A stretch of DNA of 64,000 nt, from positions 736,001-800,000 of the forward strand of contig CBDDDZ010000005.1 in assembly GCA_965226795.1 (NCBI GenBank), read 5' to 3'. Positions 16,132-30,375 of the stretch are shown in pieces. The position numbers and the translations under genes are program-made. This DNA is from Candidatus Latescibacterota bacterium (GTDB lineage Bacteria > Latescibacterota > UBA2968 > GCA-2709665). Under the pieces are notes generated by a model. It was not told the origin of the DNA, did not search any database, and saw nothing but the letters and a program-made list of their open reading frames with translations. Position 1 is the first letter of the stretch. Every line of letters begins with the position of its first letter.

Positions 16132-16245
16132 GACGACTTCTCCTGAACGTTTTTCTTGGATTTTGAAAATAGCCCGCTTATGTTAGAGAAAACAGGGACT
16201 CCTGTCAAGCATTTTGTCAGACCCGAGCTTAACCTGAATAATTCA

Positions 16246-18098
16246 GTGCGCCGTGAAAAGGCGCGGAACTCCAGTGGGTGAAAGTCCCACCCGACAAATG
16301 TTGCTGCAGTCGGTAGCAATCGGAGCGGGGACGTAGGTAACGACATCTCCGAAGCCTCCGGTGTAGAGGGTCGCAAGGCGACTCGGCGAGTATGCAGGCC
16401 GTAACGTGAGTGAACGCTGAGCAGGCCTCGAAAACGGTAATGCGGGAGCCGACCCGCCTGAATTACGGGGAAGGCCGCCGTCGTTGGGTAAGAAAGCAAC
16501 GGGTGCACCCAACGGTTAATGGCGACGGCATGTATACAAGGAGATCCGACGCAACACGGGAAGCCCCAACGGTGGTGGAGGGACACCAACCGGCAGCCCG
16601 CGAGGGACAGGCCGGGCGGTTTGGGGTGGCGGAGAGGCCCGTAGTACCTGCGATGCCGGGTAACGCCGGCGGAGGGAAGGGGCCTTGGTTCAAGGGCAAC
16701 GTCAAAGGAGCGAGAGCCGGGAGAGTGGCATGGGCCTAAGACCTCCGGAAAAGGTTTGGAAGCTGCAGAGGACGTTGCATGCCAAAGCGAAGGAATCGCC
16801 CGATTACCGATTCTATGCGCTGTATGACAAGGTGTATCGCGAGGACATCCTGCTTTATGCCTACCGCAGCTGCAAGGCCAACGGCGGTGCGGCGGTGGAC
16901 GGACAGACCTTTGAGGATATCGAGTCATACGGACGGGACCAGTGGTTAGGCGAACTGGCGGAAGCCGTGAGGAGCAAATCGTATCGAGCGGATCCGATTC
17001 GTCGGGTCTACATCCCCAAGGGTGACGGCAAGCAAAGACCGCTGGGGATACCGACGGTGAAGGACCGGGTGGTGCAAAGGGCAGCGATGTTGGCAATGGA
17101 GCCAATCTTTGAAGCGGACCTGCCAGCACAGCAGTATGCCTACCGCCCGAATCACGACGCCACCAGGGCGGTCCACGCCCTGGTTACGCAGGTCATCGAC
17201 GCCGACTTGAGCGGCTACTTCGACACGATTCACGCCGAGCCGGTGGCGCGGCGCATCTCAGACGGGAAGATGCTGAGTCTGATCAAGATGTGGCTGACCG
17301 CCCCGGTTGAAGAGACCGACGCGCGGGGACGGAAACGGCGAACAACGCCGAACAAGGATCAGGGAAGGGGGATACCACAAGGCGCCCCCCTCTCCCCGTT
17401 GCTGGCGAACCTGTATATGCGGCGGTTCATCCTGGGATGGCAGCTTCTGGGACATCAGCAGCGCCTGAACGCTCATATTGTCAACTACGCGGACGATTTT
17501 GTGATTTGCTGTCGCGGCACCGCACAAGAAGATGGCGTGATGCGATCCATCATGAAAGCGCTTAAGTTGACCGTCAATGAGCAGAAGACGACGCACGCTT
17601 CCAGAAGGACGATTTGACTTTCTGGGCTACACCATCGGTCGCTGTTACTCGCCAAAGACGGGCAAGGCCTATATCGGACGCGCCCGTTTGTCGGGCCATC
17701 AGCGAGGCCACAGCGCGACGGTGGTTGCTTCAAGAACGGATTGCTGAACCGAAAGCTGGTAGGCTGGGGCAACTATTTCCGTCTTGGACCGGTAAGCAAA
17801 GCCTACCGGAGTGTGGATGCCCACACCCGGCATCGGCTCCGCTGGTGGTTGTGTAACAAGCACAAGATACCGGGAAAGGGAACATCACGCTTCCCTGACG
17901 AGGTCCTCTACGATACCCTGGGCCTGACCCGGCTGGAAGTGCAGACACGCAACTTTGTCAAGAATCCTTGTCCGAGAGCCAGATCCGCAAGTCCGGTTCG
18001 ATGAGCTGGAAACAGAGCACCTATTGAGGCACCGCCAGACGAAAGGGGCGGAAACAGATAGGCCCCTCCTAAACCACCGCGCCACATCTCGACTCTAC
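16246..18098 (+). mobile_element. Group II intron (degenerate)
   Basis: 5' GTGCG, 3' CTCGACTCTAC, eroded domain V (GAGAGCC...GTCCGGTTCG, ~17974-18005), RT ORF inside. Confidence 0.9.
16730..17960 (+). pseudogene. ltrA: Group II intron reverse transcriptase/maturase, frameshifted with microdeletions
   Basis: RPLGIPTVKDR, DADLSGYFD, PQGAPLSPLLAN and YADDF motifs; FDFLGY and GWGNYF lie in other frames; 3' end approximate. Confidence 0.88.
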
Positions 18099-18452
18099 TG
18101 AATTGTCACGGATTGCAGTTTCAGGAAGCAGAAACAGGTTCCGAGTGAATCGTGAAACGGAAGGAAAACCTGTCTGTGACGGATTTGGAGTTTTCAAGCC
18201 GCTTCAGTGGCACGTGCTGGTAACACGGTAGGGCGGGGGCGTCAGGTTGACCTTTATGCCCGTGTCAAGAGCACAGACATCTGTCTGGCCTTTGGTGGTG
18301 TCGATCAAGACGTGAAGGCGGATTCAACCGGACGATGCGTTATGGAACGGACGATGCCAGATTGTAGAGGATCTTGGCATAGAGGTGTTTGAGTGGAAAC
18401 GCGGTTGGCAGATGGAACGTGATTTTGGTTTTCATCTCACAGACGCGTCCGG

Positions 18453-18482
18453 CCTGCCTGCCGAGCATCCGGCGCAGGCAGG
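18453..18482. repeat. Hairpin insertion 1 (30 nt) CCTGCCTGC-N12-GCAGGCAGG
   Basis: Exact removal restores KVAGRV in the transposase. Confidence 0.85.
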
Positions 18483-18680
18483 CGACCTTCAAGAGGCGAT
18501 TTTGCAGCGTATTATACTGGGCGTTCGTCCACTTGGTGCCGCGCAATCCCATTTCAGCCAAGGTCTGCAACAGGACATAGGCGGCGCTGTGGAGAAAGAG
18601 CCGGAAGTGATTGGCCTCGAAGGTGTGACAAGAGGTGCGATCGGAATGGAGAAAGGTCTTGTGATTCTTGATAAAGCCTT

Positions 18681-18705
18681 CCTGCCTGCCTGGCCGGCAG
18701 ACAGG
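18681..18705. repeat. Hairpin insertion 2 (25 nt) CCTGCCTGC-N7-GCAGACAGG
   Basis: Sits at the frameshift between YCGRG and EGFIKNHK; apparently accompanied by loss of a few host bases. Confidence 0.8.
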
Positions 18706-19121
18706 CCGCGTCCACAATAGACGGTTTTGTAGATGAATGAAGGGTTGGCGCGTTGCAGGTTGGTGGCCACGAAACGGATATTGTCTCCTTGCGGTGTCAC
18801 TTCCGCCTTGCAGATGATGCGGCGTGGCGAAGCCCAGGTGCTGGCCTGATAGTCCCACGCGTTATATAGGCGCACGGTTTTGCCGGAAACGGCATACAGC
18901 GCTTTGGCCTGGTCCATCAAGGGCTGTGCCCTGGGCAGCAACTTGGCATTGCCGCTTTGTCCAAGGGCAAAATACACATTCTGTGTGTCACACAACGCGT
19001 GTACTTCCGGACACGAAAAATGTGAATCGCCACGCAACAGGATCGCCACGTCGGGCCAGGCTCGACGCAGGTAGGCGATCACCCGTTTGAGAATCGAAAC
19101 GATCTCTTTGCCCGAAGGCCG

Positions 19122-19140
19122 CCTGCCTGCAGCAGGCAGG
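19122..19140. repeat. Hairpin insertion 3 (19 nt) CCTGCCTGC-A-GCAGGCAGG
   Basis: Exact removal restores the frame: LRPGVRPSGKEIVSILKRVIAYL. Confidence 0.88.
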
Positions 19141-19657
19141 CACGCCAGGACGCAAAACCGTCGTGATCAACTTGCCGGTTTGCCCTTCATAGATATGCAA
19201 CGGCTGGTAGCAATGACTCTTAAAATACGCATTGAATAACGACAACTGCCCAGAACCATACACCTTATCTTCCGTATCGTCGATATCCAGCAGGATGGCT
19301 TTGGGCGGTTTCTTATACGAGGCGATAAACCCATCGGCAAAGGCCTTCGCGATCCGATATAAGTCGCCTCTGGTGATCCGGTTCTCGAACCGACTCATCG
19401 TGGGTTGACTGGCCAGATCCGCACCGGTCAGCGGCAACCGATCACAGGCCGCCTTGAAGCCGGGGTCCCCGCGTAACGCATTGCAGTCGTTCGCATCCTC
19501 ATACCCACACGCCATCTGAAAAACACGCTGTATGACCAGGTCCGCCAATGAGTGATCCACATAACTGGGATTCCAACTATCGGTTAAGGCCTCAATGATC
19601 CGACGCAAAATGCCGTTCTTGGCCTCCACCTCACGTATCAGCATTACTCCGCTGTCG

Positions 19658-19687
19658 CCTGTCTGCGTGCGTACACGCACAGGCAGG
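19658..19687. repeat. Hairpin insertion 4 (30 nt) CCTGTCTGCGTGCGTACACGCACAGGCAGG
   Basis: Exact removal restores LTSDSG; encodes the in-frame insert LPVRVRTQTG. Confidence 0.85.
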
Positions 19688-20095
19688 CTGGTCAGAATGC
19701 CCCCGTCGAAGACGGCTTCCACCTGTTTGCCCAAAAGACTTGCGAAAGACATCCTGTGATGTTTATCTTGAACATACACGGTAGTTTCCCCCCAGTTCAT
19801 TGTTGTAAGGTTATTTGCGTAACCATAATATAATACAATGACTTGGGTAAGGAAACTACCTTTTTTGTGAATTATTCAGGCTAAGTGGCATCCGCCCGCA
19901 TTCCGGAGTCACTTTTATCATCTTCCATTTGCATGCTGGCACGGCTCGGTTGCCGGAATCCCCACTGACGGGAGTCGCGTTCGATTGTAAAAGCGTTTCG
20001 TCCCTGTACGGGGCTGGGTAGGTCCGATTGCAGCGTCACAACACGGCGGCCGAAAATCGGTTGAAATTCCGGTTGGACGCCAGGAGGTGTCGGCT

Positions 20096-28492: not shown

Positions 28493-30375
28493 TCCTTTAA
28501 TAAGCGAGTTTCGTTTGCGGCACATCGATCTGTGTTTGTGGTGAGGCGTTGGTGTCGATTTATATGGAATTGGCGTTTTGGATGGTTTTTAGGGCGGTGT
28601 TTGTCGTGGTCGCTATCGTGAATTGAGTATCCGAAGTGTCGGTCAGGCGCGTGGTGGACACACCGGTGCGTTGAGGGGTGTGGGGATGGCGCGGCGTGTG
28701 TGTGTCATCGGTCGTGCTGCATGGGTGTTATCCAAATCCGGTGCGTTCAATGATACGCCAGGTGCTGAAGAGGCGATTGAGGGTGGGTTGATAGCCGATG
28801 AGGCGCAACGTGGTGGTGTGCGCGCGTTGGATGACGTGGCAGGGAATCAAGATGATGCTGTGGATGAAGCGCCGGAATTCCATGCGGACGTACTGCTGTC
28901 GGTCCAGGTGTCGGTGCATCATCATGGCAAACCAGGATTTGAGGTTCCAGGCCAGGGCGGCGATGACCATGTAGGCCCAGTTGCTGACCAGGTCATACAG
29001 GGGCACGCGCAAGGCGTTGACGCCGTTTTTGAGTTGCTCGATGACGTTCTCCTGATCGCAGCGTTGGTTGGCACAGGCGACGATCTCGGCGGGGCTTACG
29101 TCCGTGCGTGTCGTGATATAGAAGAAATAACGGCATTCGTCGAACAGGACAAGGTCGCCCTTCATTTTGCTGATGTTCTTGCGCAGAACCACGACGCGAT
29201 ACACACGTTTACAGCGCGTGGGTTGGTAGTTGAACTCGGCCACGTGTTCGTGGTTGAGGACCAGGTTGGCGTAGGCCCGTTTGCGGACGATGCGCTGTTT
29301 CTCGTGGGGCTGATTGCGCTTCCGCTTCTGGTCGGTCACGGTGTGATAACGGGGTTTGCGTTGCAGGGGCTGCCATTGTGCCTCGTCGAGGGCCTCAGCA
29401 CGGGAACGCATCGTCGCGTTGGCGTCCATCCCGAAGATGAAGTCGACGCTTTTGGCCCATCGATCAAAATGTCGGGTCAAGGAAAAGTCGGTGTCGCCAC
29501 GTACACAGAGGCGCTTGGCGTGGGGCTGCACCAGCGCCAAGGCCGCGTCGATCCAGGGTGCCGCACCGGTGTGGCTGGGCACATTCCCCGGTCGGTTGAC
29601 CAGGAAGAGCACTTCCTTCGTGTTGGCCAGTGAGATCACCAGCGGATGGTAGCCCCAGATGCCCTGGTAAGAGATGTCCATACCCCTCTTGCGCTTTCCA
29701 TACGTCGGCACGTTTGTGCCGTCCACGTCGATATAGGTGATGTCACAAAGCAATTTGCGGCCACGCGATGCCCACAAGGAGGATCGCACCGCGTTGATGC
29801 ACGCCATCAGTTCGACGATGTCCCGTTCCGAGAAGCGTCGGCAAAAGTCACCCGCCGTGGTCGGATCGGGAATCAACTGAGCACCCAGGGCATTCATGTA
29901 GGCCCCGTCATGTCGCAAACGCTCGATATCCTCCAGGCGCGTGCCGCCGCACAACACGTTGTAAGCGATGTTGAGCACGTGGTCCGACTCATGATAGGGC
30001 AGATGCACCTTCAACAGGGACAGCGACGCGTCGATGCGCTTGGGCAGTCCCAGCTTGGTGACCAGGCGATGCACGGCGCCGATGCCTCCGTAACTCATCG
30101 CGTCGGTGTAGGCGCCCACCTCGTAGTGCACTTTGCCAGGGCTGAACATGGGCCGGGGCTGCGCCTGCCAATGCCCCGCTCGACCGTGGCGGGCGGCCAC
30201 TTTGCGTTTGCGACGAGCACTGTTCCTGCGGCTGTCATCAACCGATATTCTTTTCACCGGAAAGGTCTCCTGCGTTGGAGTGATGATTTCTAGCGCAATC
30301 CATCTATCTCCAACAACGGTAGGCCTTTCCGGTCTCTTGGACCAGAAAAATCTCACCATCACGCTTGTTTAAGGG
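28493..30375 (-). mobile_element. IS1380-family insertion sequence
   Basis: Imperfect IRs TCCTTTAATAAGCG / CCCTTAAACAAGCG; CTAG target duplication at 28489-28492 and 30376-30379. Confidence 0.92.
28728..30257 (-). CDS. IS1380-family transposase (apparently intact)
   Basis: PYHESDH, IPDPTTAGDF, IDVDGT, RGDTDF and QENVIEQLK; GTG start after AGGAG. Confidence 0.93.
   Translation of the reverse strand: MKRISVDDSRRNSARRKRKVAARHGRAGHWQAQPRPMFSPGKVHYEVGAYTDAMSYGGIGAVHRLVTKLGLPKRIDASLSLLKVHLPYHESDHVLNIAYNVLCGGTRLEDIERLRHDGAYMNALGAQLIPDPTTAGDFCRRFSERDIVELMACINAVRSSLWASRGRKLLCDITYIDVDGTNVPTYGKRKRGMDISYQGIWGYHPLVISLANTKEVLFLVNRPGNVPSHTGAAPWIDAALALVQPHAKRLCVRGDTDFSLTRHFDRWAKSVDFIFGMDANATMRSRAEALDEAQWQPLQRKPRYHTVTDQKRKRNQPHEKQRIVRKRAYANLVLNHEHVAEFNYQPTRCKRVYRVVVLRKNISKMKGDLVLFDECRYFFYITTRTDVSPAEIVACANQRCDQENVIEQLKNGVNALRVPLYDLVSNWAYMVIAALAWNLKSWFAMMMHRHLDRQQYVRMEFRRFIHSIILIPCHVIQRAHTTTLRLIGYQPTLNRLFSTWRIIERTGFG

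Follow-up and report, generated by a model that had tools for sequence, protein, structure and literature searches.

An IS1380-family transposase pseudogene of a Candidatus Latescibacterota bacterium is peppered with four short palindromic inserts, which raises the question of whether such inserts constitute a mobile family of their own and, if so, how they are spread and where they persist. The locus lies in the window, i.e., the whole 64,000-nucleotide stretch analysed (contig CBDDDZ010000005.1, positions 736,001 to 800,000). The pseudogene (18340..19800, minus strand; Pfam DDE_Tnp_1_4) extends over three frames within a complete IS1380 element (16233..19880, minus strand), which an inverted-repeat search delimited by its terminal inverted repeats and which starts with CCTG and finishes with CAGG. 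Intact IS1380 copies show a CTAG target duplication. A group II intron (16246..18098, plus strand; RVT_1 and GIIM pieces, Rfam RF02003), featuring a broken reverse transcriptase (RT) gene, is a bystander located 13 nt inside the downstream IS1380 end; three further partial or full copies of the intron occur elsewhere in the source genome, and two other genomic copies carry a hairpin in the 5' RNA part. The second IS1380 of the window (approximately 28730-30360) belongs to a different subfamily, is intact and hairpin-free, and has recently expanded to about 10 near-identical copies.

Within the window, the motif CCTGYCTG-N-CAGRCAGG matches five times, at four places, where shuffled sequence would give 0.01. 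A 30-nt insert (18453..18482, minus strand), composed of an arm, a 2-nt bulge, an inner stem and an arm, adds 10 residues in frame near the transposase C-terminus, and a 21-nt insert (18685..18705, minus strand) adds 7 residues in frame directly ahead of the RMEGFIKNHK segment. The minimal 19-nt hairpin (19122..19140, no strand assigned) causes a frameshift, and another 30-nt insert (19658..19687, plus strand) adds 10 residues in frame within the FDGGILT-SDSG segment. When aligned to empty IS1380 copies of the same genome and of relatives (for instance, locus L030, 95% identical), all four inserts are clean gaps between G and C.

The original prediction that inserts with shared arms interrupt one transposase gene is therefore correct, as four places match the motif and the comparison with uninterrupted copies that it proposed yields four precise insertions. 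Of the sizes it listed (19, 25, 30 and 30 nt), three hold, whereas the supposed 25-mer comprises the 21-nt hairpin plus four gene bases. Similarly, it had deemed three insertions precise and tied the fourth to a deletion; three are indeed precise, but the fourth, the 21-mer, is precise as well, and the 4-nt deletion found a few bases downstream is a separate event, absent from the sister copies C2:167884 and C5:2617126. Finally, two inserts had been thought to shift the frame and two to preserve it. Three are in frame (10, 7 and 10 residues) and the 19-mer alone shifts it, the second frameshift of the pseudogene arising from the 4-nt deletion and not from a hairpin.

In contigs assembled from other sponge DNA and RNA runs, whose labels point to a sponge habitat for the bacterium, the 30-, 19- and 30-nt inserts are spanned without differences, and a single DNA contig spans the 21-mer, making an assembly artefact unlikely. 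Taken with the shuffle expectation and the reversed controls, these contigs lead us to reject both chance origin and artefact. No joint skipping an insert was found in four runs at each of two stretches, in contigs that drop rare forms, and RNA-run contigs, which may derive from DNA, retain the inserts. Frequent precise excision or splicing thus finds no insert-free joint in its favour among contigs that are unable to show absence. An Rfam search gave no match at the inserts.

Hairpins of this type are about 19-39 bases long and have fixed arms that form inverted repeats of 8-9 nt. In the longer types, an arm is followed by a 2-nt bulge, an inner stem, a loop and the second arm, and many copies are imperfect palindromes of 20-40 nt. 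The inner stem co-varies: in 40 distinct 33-mers, 204 of 240 cells pair, compared with a mean of 142 and a maximum of 172 after shuffling, although related types inflate this count. An arm variant forms a T-G (U-G) pair on one strand and a C-A mismatch on the other. A longer element of 275-345 bp, located between inverted REP-like hairpins, is found at G000:C3:548506-548780 (coordinates in the source genome, G000, with hairpins removed) and at about six similar places. These REP-like hairpins have 9 bases in common with the micro-hairpin arm, and the element is possibly a REPIN-like family or an evolutionary relative of the micro-hairpin.

The genome-wide motif count that had been suggested returned 101 exact copies in the 5.4-Mb source genome, including 58 of 33 nt, 12 of 30 nt and 9 of 19 nt. 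Matches are present in 32 of 41 related genomes, at 1 to 279 copies, while reversed controls are near zero; copy numbers in relatives are therefore patchy, ranging from 0 to 279. A scan of species genomes identified at least 120 stretches in records titled Bacteroidota, Patescibacteria, Chloroflexota and Omnitrophota, among others, most of them 20-mers and some attributable to chance. In the phylum of G041, a Patescibacteria genome, the 20-mer occurs in 19 of 81 genomes, the seed genome included. Inserts from the source genome and from hand-picked stretches of relatives (275 in total) were grouped into 114 site clusters, 21 of which lie within or beside another hairpin. The hairpins make up a family of extremely short palindromic insertion elements that have no coding capacity and behave as mobile DNA, as evidenced by filled and empty alleles, nested copies, patchy copy numbers in relatives and occurrence in many phyla. 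Few mobile DNA elements are likely to be smaller. The proposal that they are non-autonomous and mobilised in trans is thus borne out with regard to family and mobility. In contrast, the trans-acting enzyme is putative, no mobilising gene having been found in the source genome or at the cross-phylum loci.

The target logo is short, with a purine before the insertion point, mostly C after it, no A at -2 and no T at +2. A CNG half-site is found at 51 of 75 non-nested purine-pyrimidine sites, against a background of 29%. G^C flanks characterize 57 of the 114 site clusters and, among the 139 cross-phylum sites, for which the empty state is inferred and not aligned, only 12; of the 101 genomic copies, 15 have other flanks. 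The G^C step originally noted holds for all four window inserts, but its alternative reading as a 2-bp GC duplication fails family-wide: flanks are mixed, and no common target-duplication length emerges in the source genome, in the clusters of relatives or at cross-phylum sites. Insertion is accordingly blunt, without target duplication, at a weak purine^pyrimidine motif that often includes a CNG half-site. The flank logo of 89 oriented site clusters contains no fixed tetranucleotide of the GTAG/CGTC type. Pairing between the variable centre and the target looked suggestive by eye at two sites but found no support over 61 sites (p=0.21 against permuted pairing). Targets fold only about 2 kcal/mol better than base-shuffled controls. 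Predicted target folds reveal no preference for hairpin loops (27 versus 29.5 expected and 29 versus 33.1 expected), and no significant bias between leading and lagging replication strands is seen (41 versus 39 copies; 16 versus 8 per cluster). The lack of both argues against a single-strand HUH route, which might have shown either.

Sites, once used, tend to be used again. In one repeat family, the hairpin occupies the same base in 45 of 76 copies and is nearly always of the same type and orientation. On a flank tree built from 91 columns, the filled/empty label changes 26 times, compared with 24 for shuffles, and at least 9 changes are forced by supported branches; flanks are mosaic among empty copies too, and gain and loss are not polarised. 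The filled state is scattered at random over this tree. The repeat is non-coding, measures about 90 bp and has A/T-tract arms (for instance, C2:268837-268916), and, on either side of the hairpin site, its upstream variants combine freely with its downstream variants.

The IS1380 copies follow a comparable pattern. Three filled copies in the source genome contain all four inserts and are roughly as divergent from each other (95.7-95.8% identical) as from an empty copy (93-95%), with synonymous-rich differences lying 5-20 nt from the inserts. At three of the four window sites, other IS lineages, one of which is 74% identical, hold different hairpins. For instance, site 18453..18482 contains a 21-nt hairpin in opposite orientation in a copy of relative G010 (L329), site 18685..18705 contains a 33-nt hairpin in relative G007 (L012), and site 19658..19687 contains hairpins of 27 nt (L002) and 19 nt (L008, L329). 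Of 88 possible sites, 5 account for 8-9 events, which corresponds to p of about 1e-3 to 1e-4; the number of independent events is a judgement, and centre-swapping at filled sites could lower it. Targeting of conserved transposase codons finds no support, three of the four sites ranking 53, 34 and 6 of 82 in conservation. Given the recurrent sites and their unremarkable codon conservation, the 4-base motif does not suffice to explain where the element lands: something else guides it to positions used before, the simplest candidate being transfer of the hairpin from a filled homologue to an empty one. Part of the scatter may come from ordinary recombination, as both the repeat and the IS families are mosaic even among empty copies. 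The IS1380 copy at G000:C5:1913195-1914932 is a three-part chimera of lineages that are 70-85% identical to each other; recombination between IS1380 copies takes place readily in this genome.

On balance, we lean towards a widespread family of 19-39-base non-autonomous hairpins, moved by a putative enzyme that recognises the folded single strand, and persisting mainly where selection is weak. Rare insertions would occur anywhere, through single-strand cleavage and strand transfer resembling REP/TnpA(REP) chemistry; by analogy with TnpA(REP), the trans-acting enzyme would read the folded strand and join it at the foot of the hairpin. Once one copy of an IS or a REP-like repeat is filled, the same base of other copies would be filled by copying or re-insertion. 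This transfer would carry very little flanking DNA, producing hot spots and old, riddled IS copies such as that of the window. A bolder reading, possible but in our opinion unlikely, is that of a cross-phylum hyperparasite of 19-36 bases that is moved by a putative new enzyme, homes to the identical base of related mobile elements and acts as an inbuilt brake, inactivating insertion sequences as they age. Such homing would, on the same tentative footing, need a handful of matching flanking bases.

Of the first 80 cross-phylum loci, 75 supplied 236 frames, after the removal of five loci that looked redundant or due to chance and of two duplicate frames; no constant neighbouring enzyme was found among them. 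The anticipated nuclease or transposase gene flanked by the motif did not materialize as a consistent partner in the source genome, and the small proteins common to this genome and about half of one Patescibacteria genome (an unannotated list) included none that stood out. The candidate that fared best is a small GIY-YIG nuclease travelling with tRNA remnants and repeats, which would cut the target and leave the hairpin to be captured or copied during repair, in a homing-like manner that would account for same-site filling. In the phylum of G041, at least three GIY-YIG matches are found in 17 of 19 hairpin-positive genomes and in 30 of 62 others (Fisher p=0.0014), counts that include UvrC and non-independent kin. 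Hairpins are located 13-274 bp upstream of small GIY-YIG genes at five Patescibacteria loci and in L065. However, no GIY-YIG gene scored in the source genome, relatives rich and poor in hairpins have small GIY-YIGs alike, and only 9 of 145 examined hairpins are near one. Moreover, four of the five loci were chosen as their coordinates already matched, and the genes may simply mark remnant-rich genomes. We consider this explanation rather improbable. In L065 (1091-1899), a tRNA-Leu precedes a pair of identical small GIY-YIG genes, and after each gene of the pair comes a tRNA-like remnant with a 28-nt hairpin in its T-loop. In L361 (1-2310), an HsdM methyltransferase frame also holds DUF559 and GIY-YIG domains.

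RAYT transposases were also considered as mobilisers and were rejected. The three RAYTs of the source genome are flanked by other repeats. Strong RAYT matches occur in six hairpin-rich relatives, but none is found in G007 (136 copies; 100 contigs), and hairpin-poor relatives give weak matches. Among 13 Y1 loci examined in relatives, two have one hairpin nearby, that of L458 lying inside the RAYT's own repeat. Y1 transposases are not associated with hairpins in Patescibacteria, being present in 9 of 19 hairpin-positive and 24 of 62 other genomes. In the region G000:C2:153689-172749, one RAYT is free-standing and has repeats of its own, two RAYT domains form in-frame fusions in ORFs of 1200 residues, and a hairpin-riddled IS1380 copy lies between the RAYTs.

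Slightly less credible than the nuclease is a route through a small structured RNA, which a borrowed reverse transcriptase would copy into DNA at breaks or at sites of reverse splicing. The arm variant described above makes one strand seem the working strand, but DNA accommodates a T-G pair just as well. Group II intron RTs are available in the genome, yet the inserts display neither duplications nor truncated ends. A similar route has been put forward, as a hypothesis, in the text on yeast mitochondrial GC clusters (PMC4478555).

Where the hairpins persist bears on the second step of the favoured weak-selection account, in which purifying selection would clear most host genes of inserts and leave those at tolerated in-frame sites. 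Repeated DNA makes up 9.5% of the source genome and holds 86 of the 101 copies. According to a crude gene model, short non-coding repeats account for 57 copies and the 836 kb of unique non-coding DNA for 10, roughly five of which lie within decayed repeats as judged by eye. Host genes contain three copies, each in frame and 30-33 nt long, contrary to the original impression that housekeeping genes were spared. One of these inserts lies in a homocysteine S-methyltransferase gene; none of 12 congeners has it, and contigs of all four runs, one of them RNA, contain it. Lengths are multiples of three in 70 of the 114 site clusters, and the 19-20-mers placeable inside Pfam-named genes are in transposase or DUF559 genes. 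In-frame host copies, lengths in multiples of three and the confinement of 19-20-mers to such genes support the selection step. In relatives, hairpins are carried by IS1380, IS256, IS5/IS1182, IS630, IS110, IS21 and IS3 genes and by about ten host genes, in a sample of hand-picked, cluster-biased sites. At L502 (G041:C9), a repeat bearing the 20-mer, some copies of which are nested, recurs between genes matching a source-genome cluster that we take to be a ribosomal protein operon.

The remaining contender of substance, which we find doubtful, is a host system that aims hairpins at mobile-element genes to inactivate them. The 60 kb of transposase/RT coding DNA hold 21 of the 101 copies, in 10 of 53 pieces. 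In terms of independent sites, the 8 found in this DNA, compared with the 10 in unique non-coding DNA, represent an approximately tenfold higher density (p about 1e-5), a ratio inflated by selection on part of the unique non-coding DNA. In addition, hairpins are the sole lesions in copy C5:2616, and the seven IS families that carry them in relatives point in the same direction, subject to the bias of that sample. However, the 57 copies in short non-coding repeats inactivate nothing obvious, most copies keep the frame, and a conserved host gene carries one. One IS1380 subfamily accounts for 15 of the 21 transposase/RT copies. In the source genome, no hairpins are found in IS3 (0/6), IS630 (0/3), the 1635-bp IS1182 type (0/4) or IS1380b (0/12), the last in agreement with what had been noted for the second IS1380 of the window. 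Nor are they found in recently expanded, near-identical IS copies of this genome, an absence that could, for a defence system, reflect survivorship. The lack of guide-target matching also counts against a defence, as do the Patescibacteria contexts inspected by eye, which are mostly tRNA remnants and small repeats. The enrichment in mobile genes, a test of which had been proposed, is real when set against unique non-coding DNA, yet hairpins also occur in repeats, tRNA remnants and host genes. Of the two outcomes first envisaged, accumulation in unselected DNA, with copy-to-copy spread, likely fits better than anti-transposon defence, since repeats, tRNA remnants and in-frame host genes carry hairpins and young, intact IS copies do not; directed inactivation is retained at lower weight. 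Neutrality is not a full explanation of the tenfold enrichment in transposase genes.

That the hairpins are extreme MITEs of IS1380-type transposases, as the CCTG and CAGG ends of the host IS might suggest, is highly improbable and largely refuted: only 4 bases are in common, the hairpins lack a duplication whereas intact IS copies have CTAG, two transposase-binding ends would hardly fit into 19 nt, none of the 28 arm pairs spaced 41-6000 bp apart in the source genome delimits a longer, gene-bearing element with full arms, and lone arms there are not above the reversed control (105 and 147 versus 105 and 187).

The hairpin family is real and apparently undescribed, no description of the motif having been found in a literature covered mainly by open-access main texts. 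New at this locus are the quantified distribution, the random scatter of filled and empty copies and the recurrent sites. A precise inserter of 19-20 bases, with nearly the same letters from Patescibacteria to Bacteroidota to the source genome, would come close to the minimum size of mobile DNA. The family implies a widespread, unrecognised DNA-insertion enzyme, which could serve for scar-free tag insertion, and accounts for a class of broken transposase genes and for odd insertions of 7-12 residues in proteins of uncultured bacteria. The source genome is a suitable test bed, offering the same site many times over in filled and in empty form, while hairpin numbers in its close relatives run from 0 to 279.

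Comparison with known systems relies on what the cited texts describe. Like MITEs, the hairpins are non-autonomous, have inverted ends and are able to inactivate genes, but they lack a target duplication and an autonomous partner with the same ends and are about a tenth of the size (PMC3184786). The REP/BIME/REPIN sequences associated with TnpA(REP)/RAYT are likewise imperfect palindromes of 20-40 nt with a bulged stem and a high, patchy copy number (PMC8266576, PMC3116915, PMC3733652); they have no coding capacity, and some are intragenic and in frame. A bulged stem is a requirement of TnpA(REP), which acts at a dinucleotide by cutting and transferring single strands (PMC8266576), a reaction that would yield blunt, duplication-free joins like those of the hairpins. 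In contrast to REPs as portrayed in these papers, the hairpins have no GTAG/CGTC tag, no doublet organisation and no RAYT with the hairpin as its own repeat. A single hairpin with palindromic ends makes up the entire element, whose insertion targets include REPs, tRNA remnants, IS genes and the hairpin itself, and whose letters are near-identical in unrelated phyla. SDR5 of cyanobacteria, compared by description only, is a very small module with precise insertion into HIP1, a short GC-rich site, which it enters after the third base and before the fourth (PMC4390886), whereas the hairpins have no fixed 8-base target and a broad phylum range. The GC clusters of yeast mitochondria (GC42) are short GC-rich palindromes present or absent at homologous sites, whose units merge and shuffle, are exchanged by recombination and have a putative enzyme; unlike the bacterial hairpins, which have no duplication, they are organellar and show a putative AG target duplication (PMC4478555). 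As these accounts present them, SDR5 and the yeast mitochondrial GC clusters are the systems that behave most similarly. The hairpin family works like REP yet belongs neither to the REPs nor to the MITEs.
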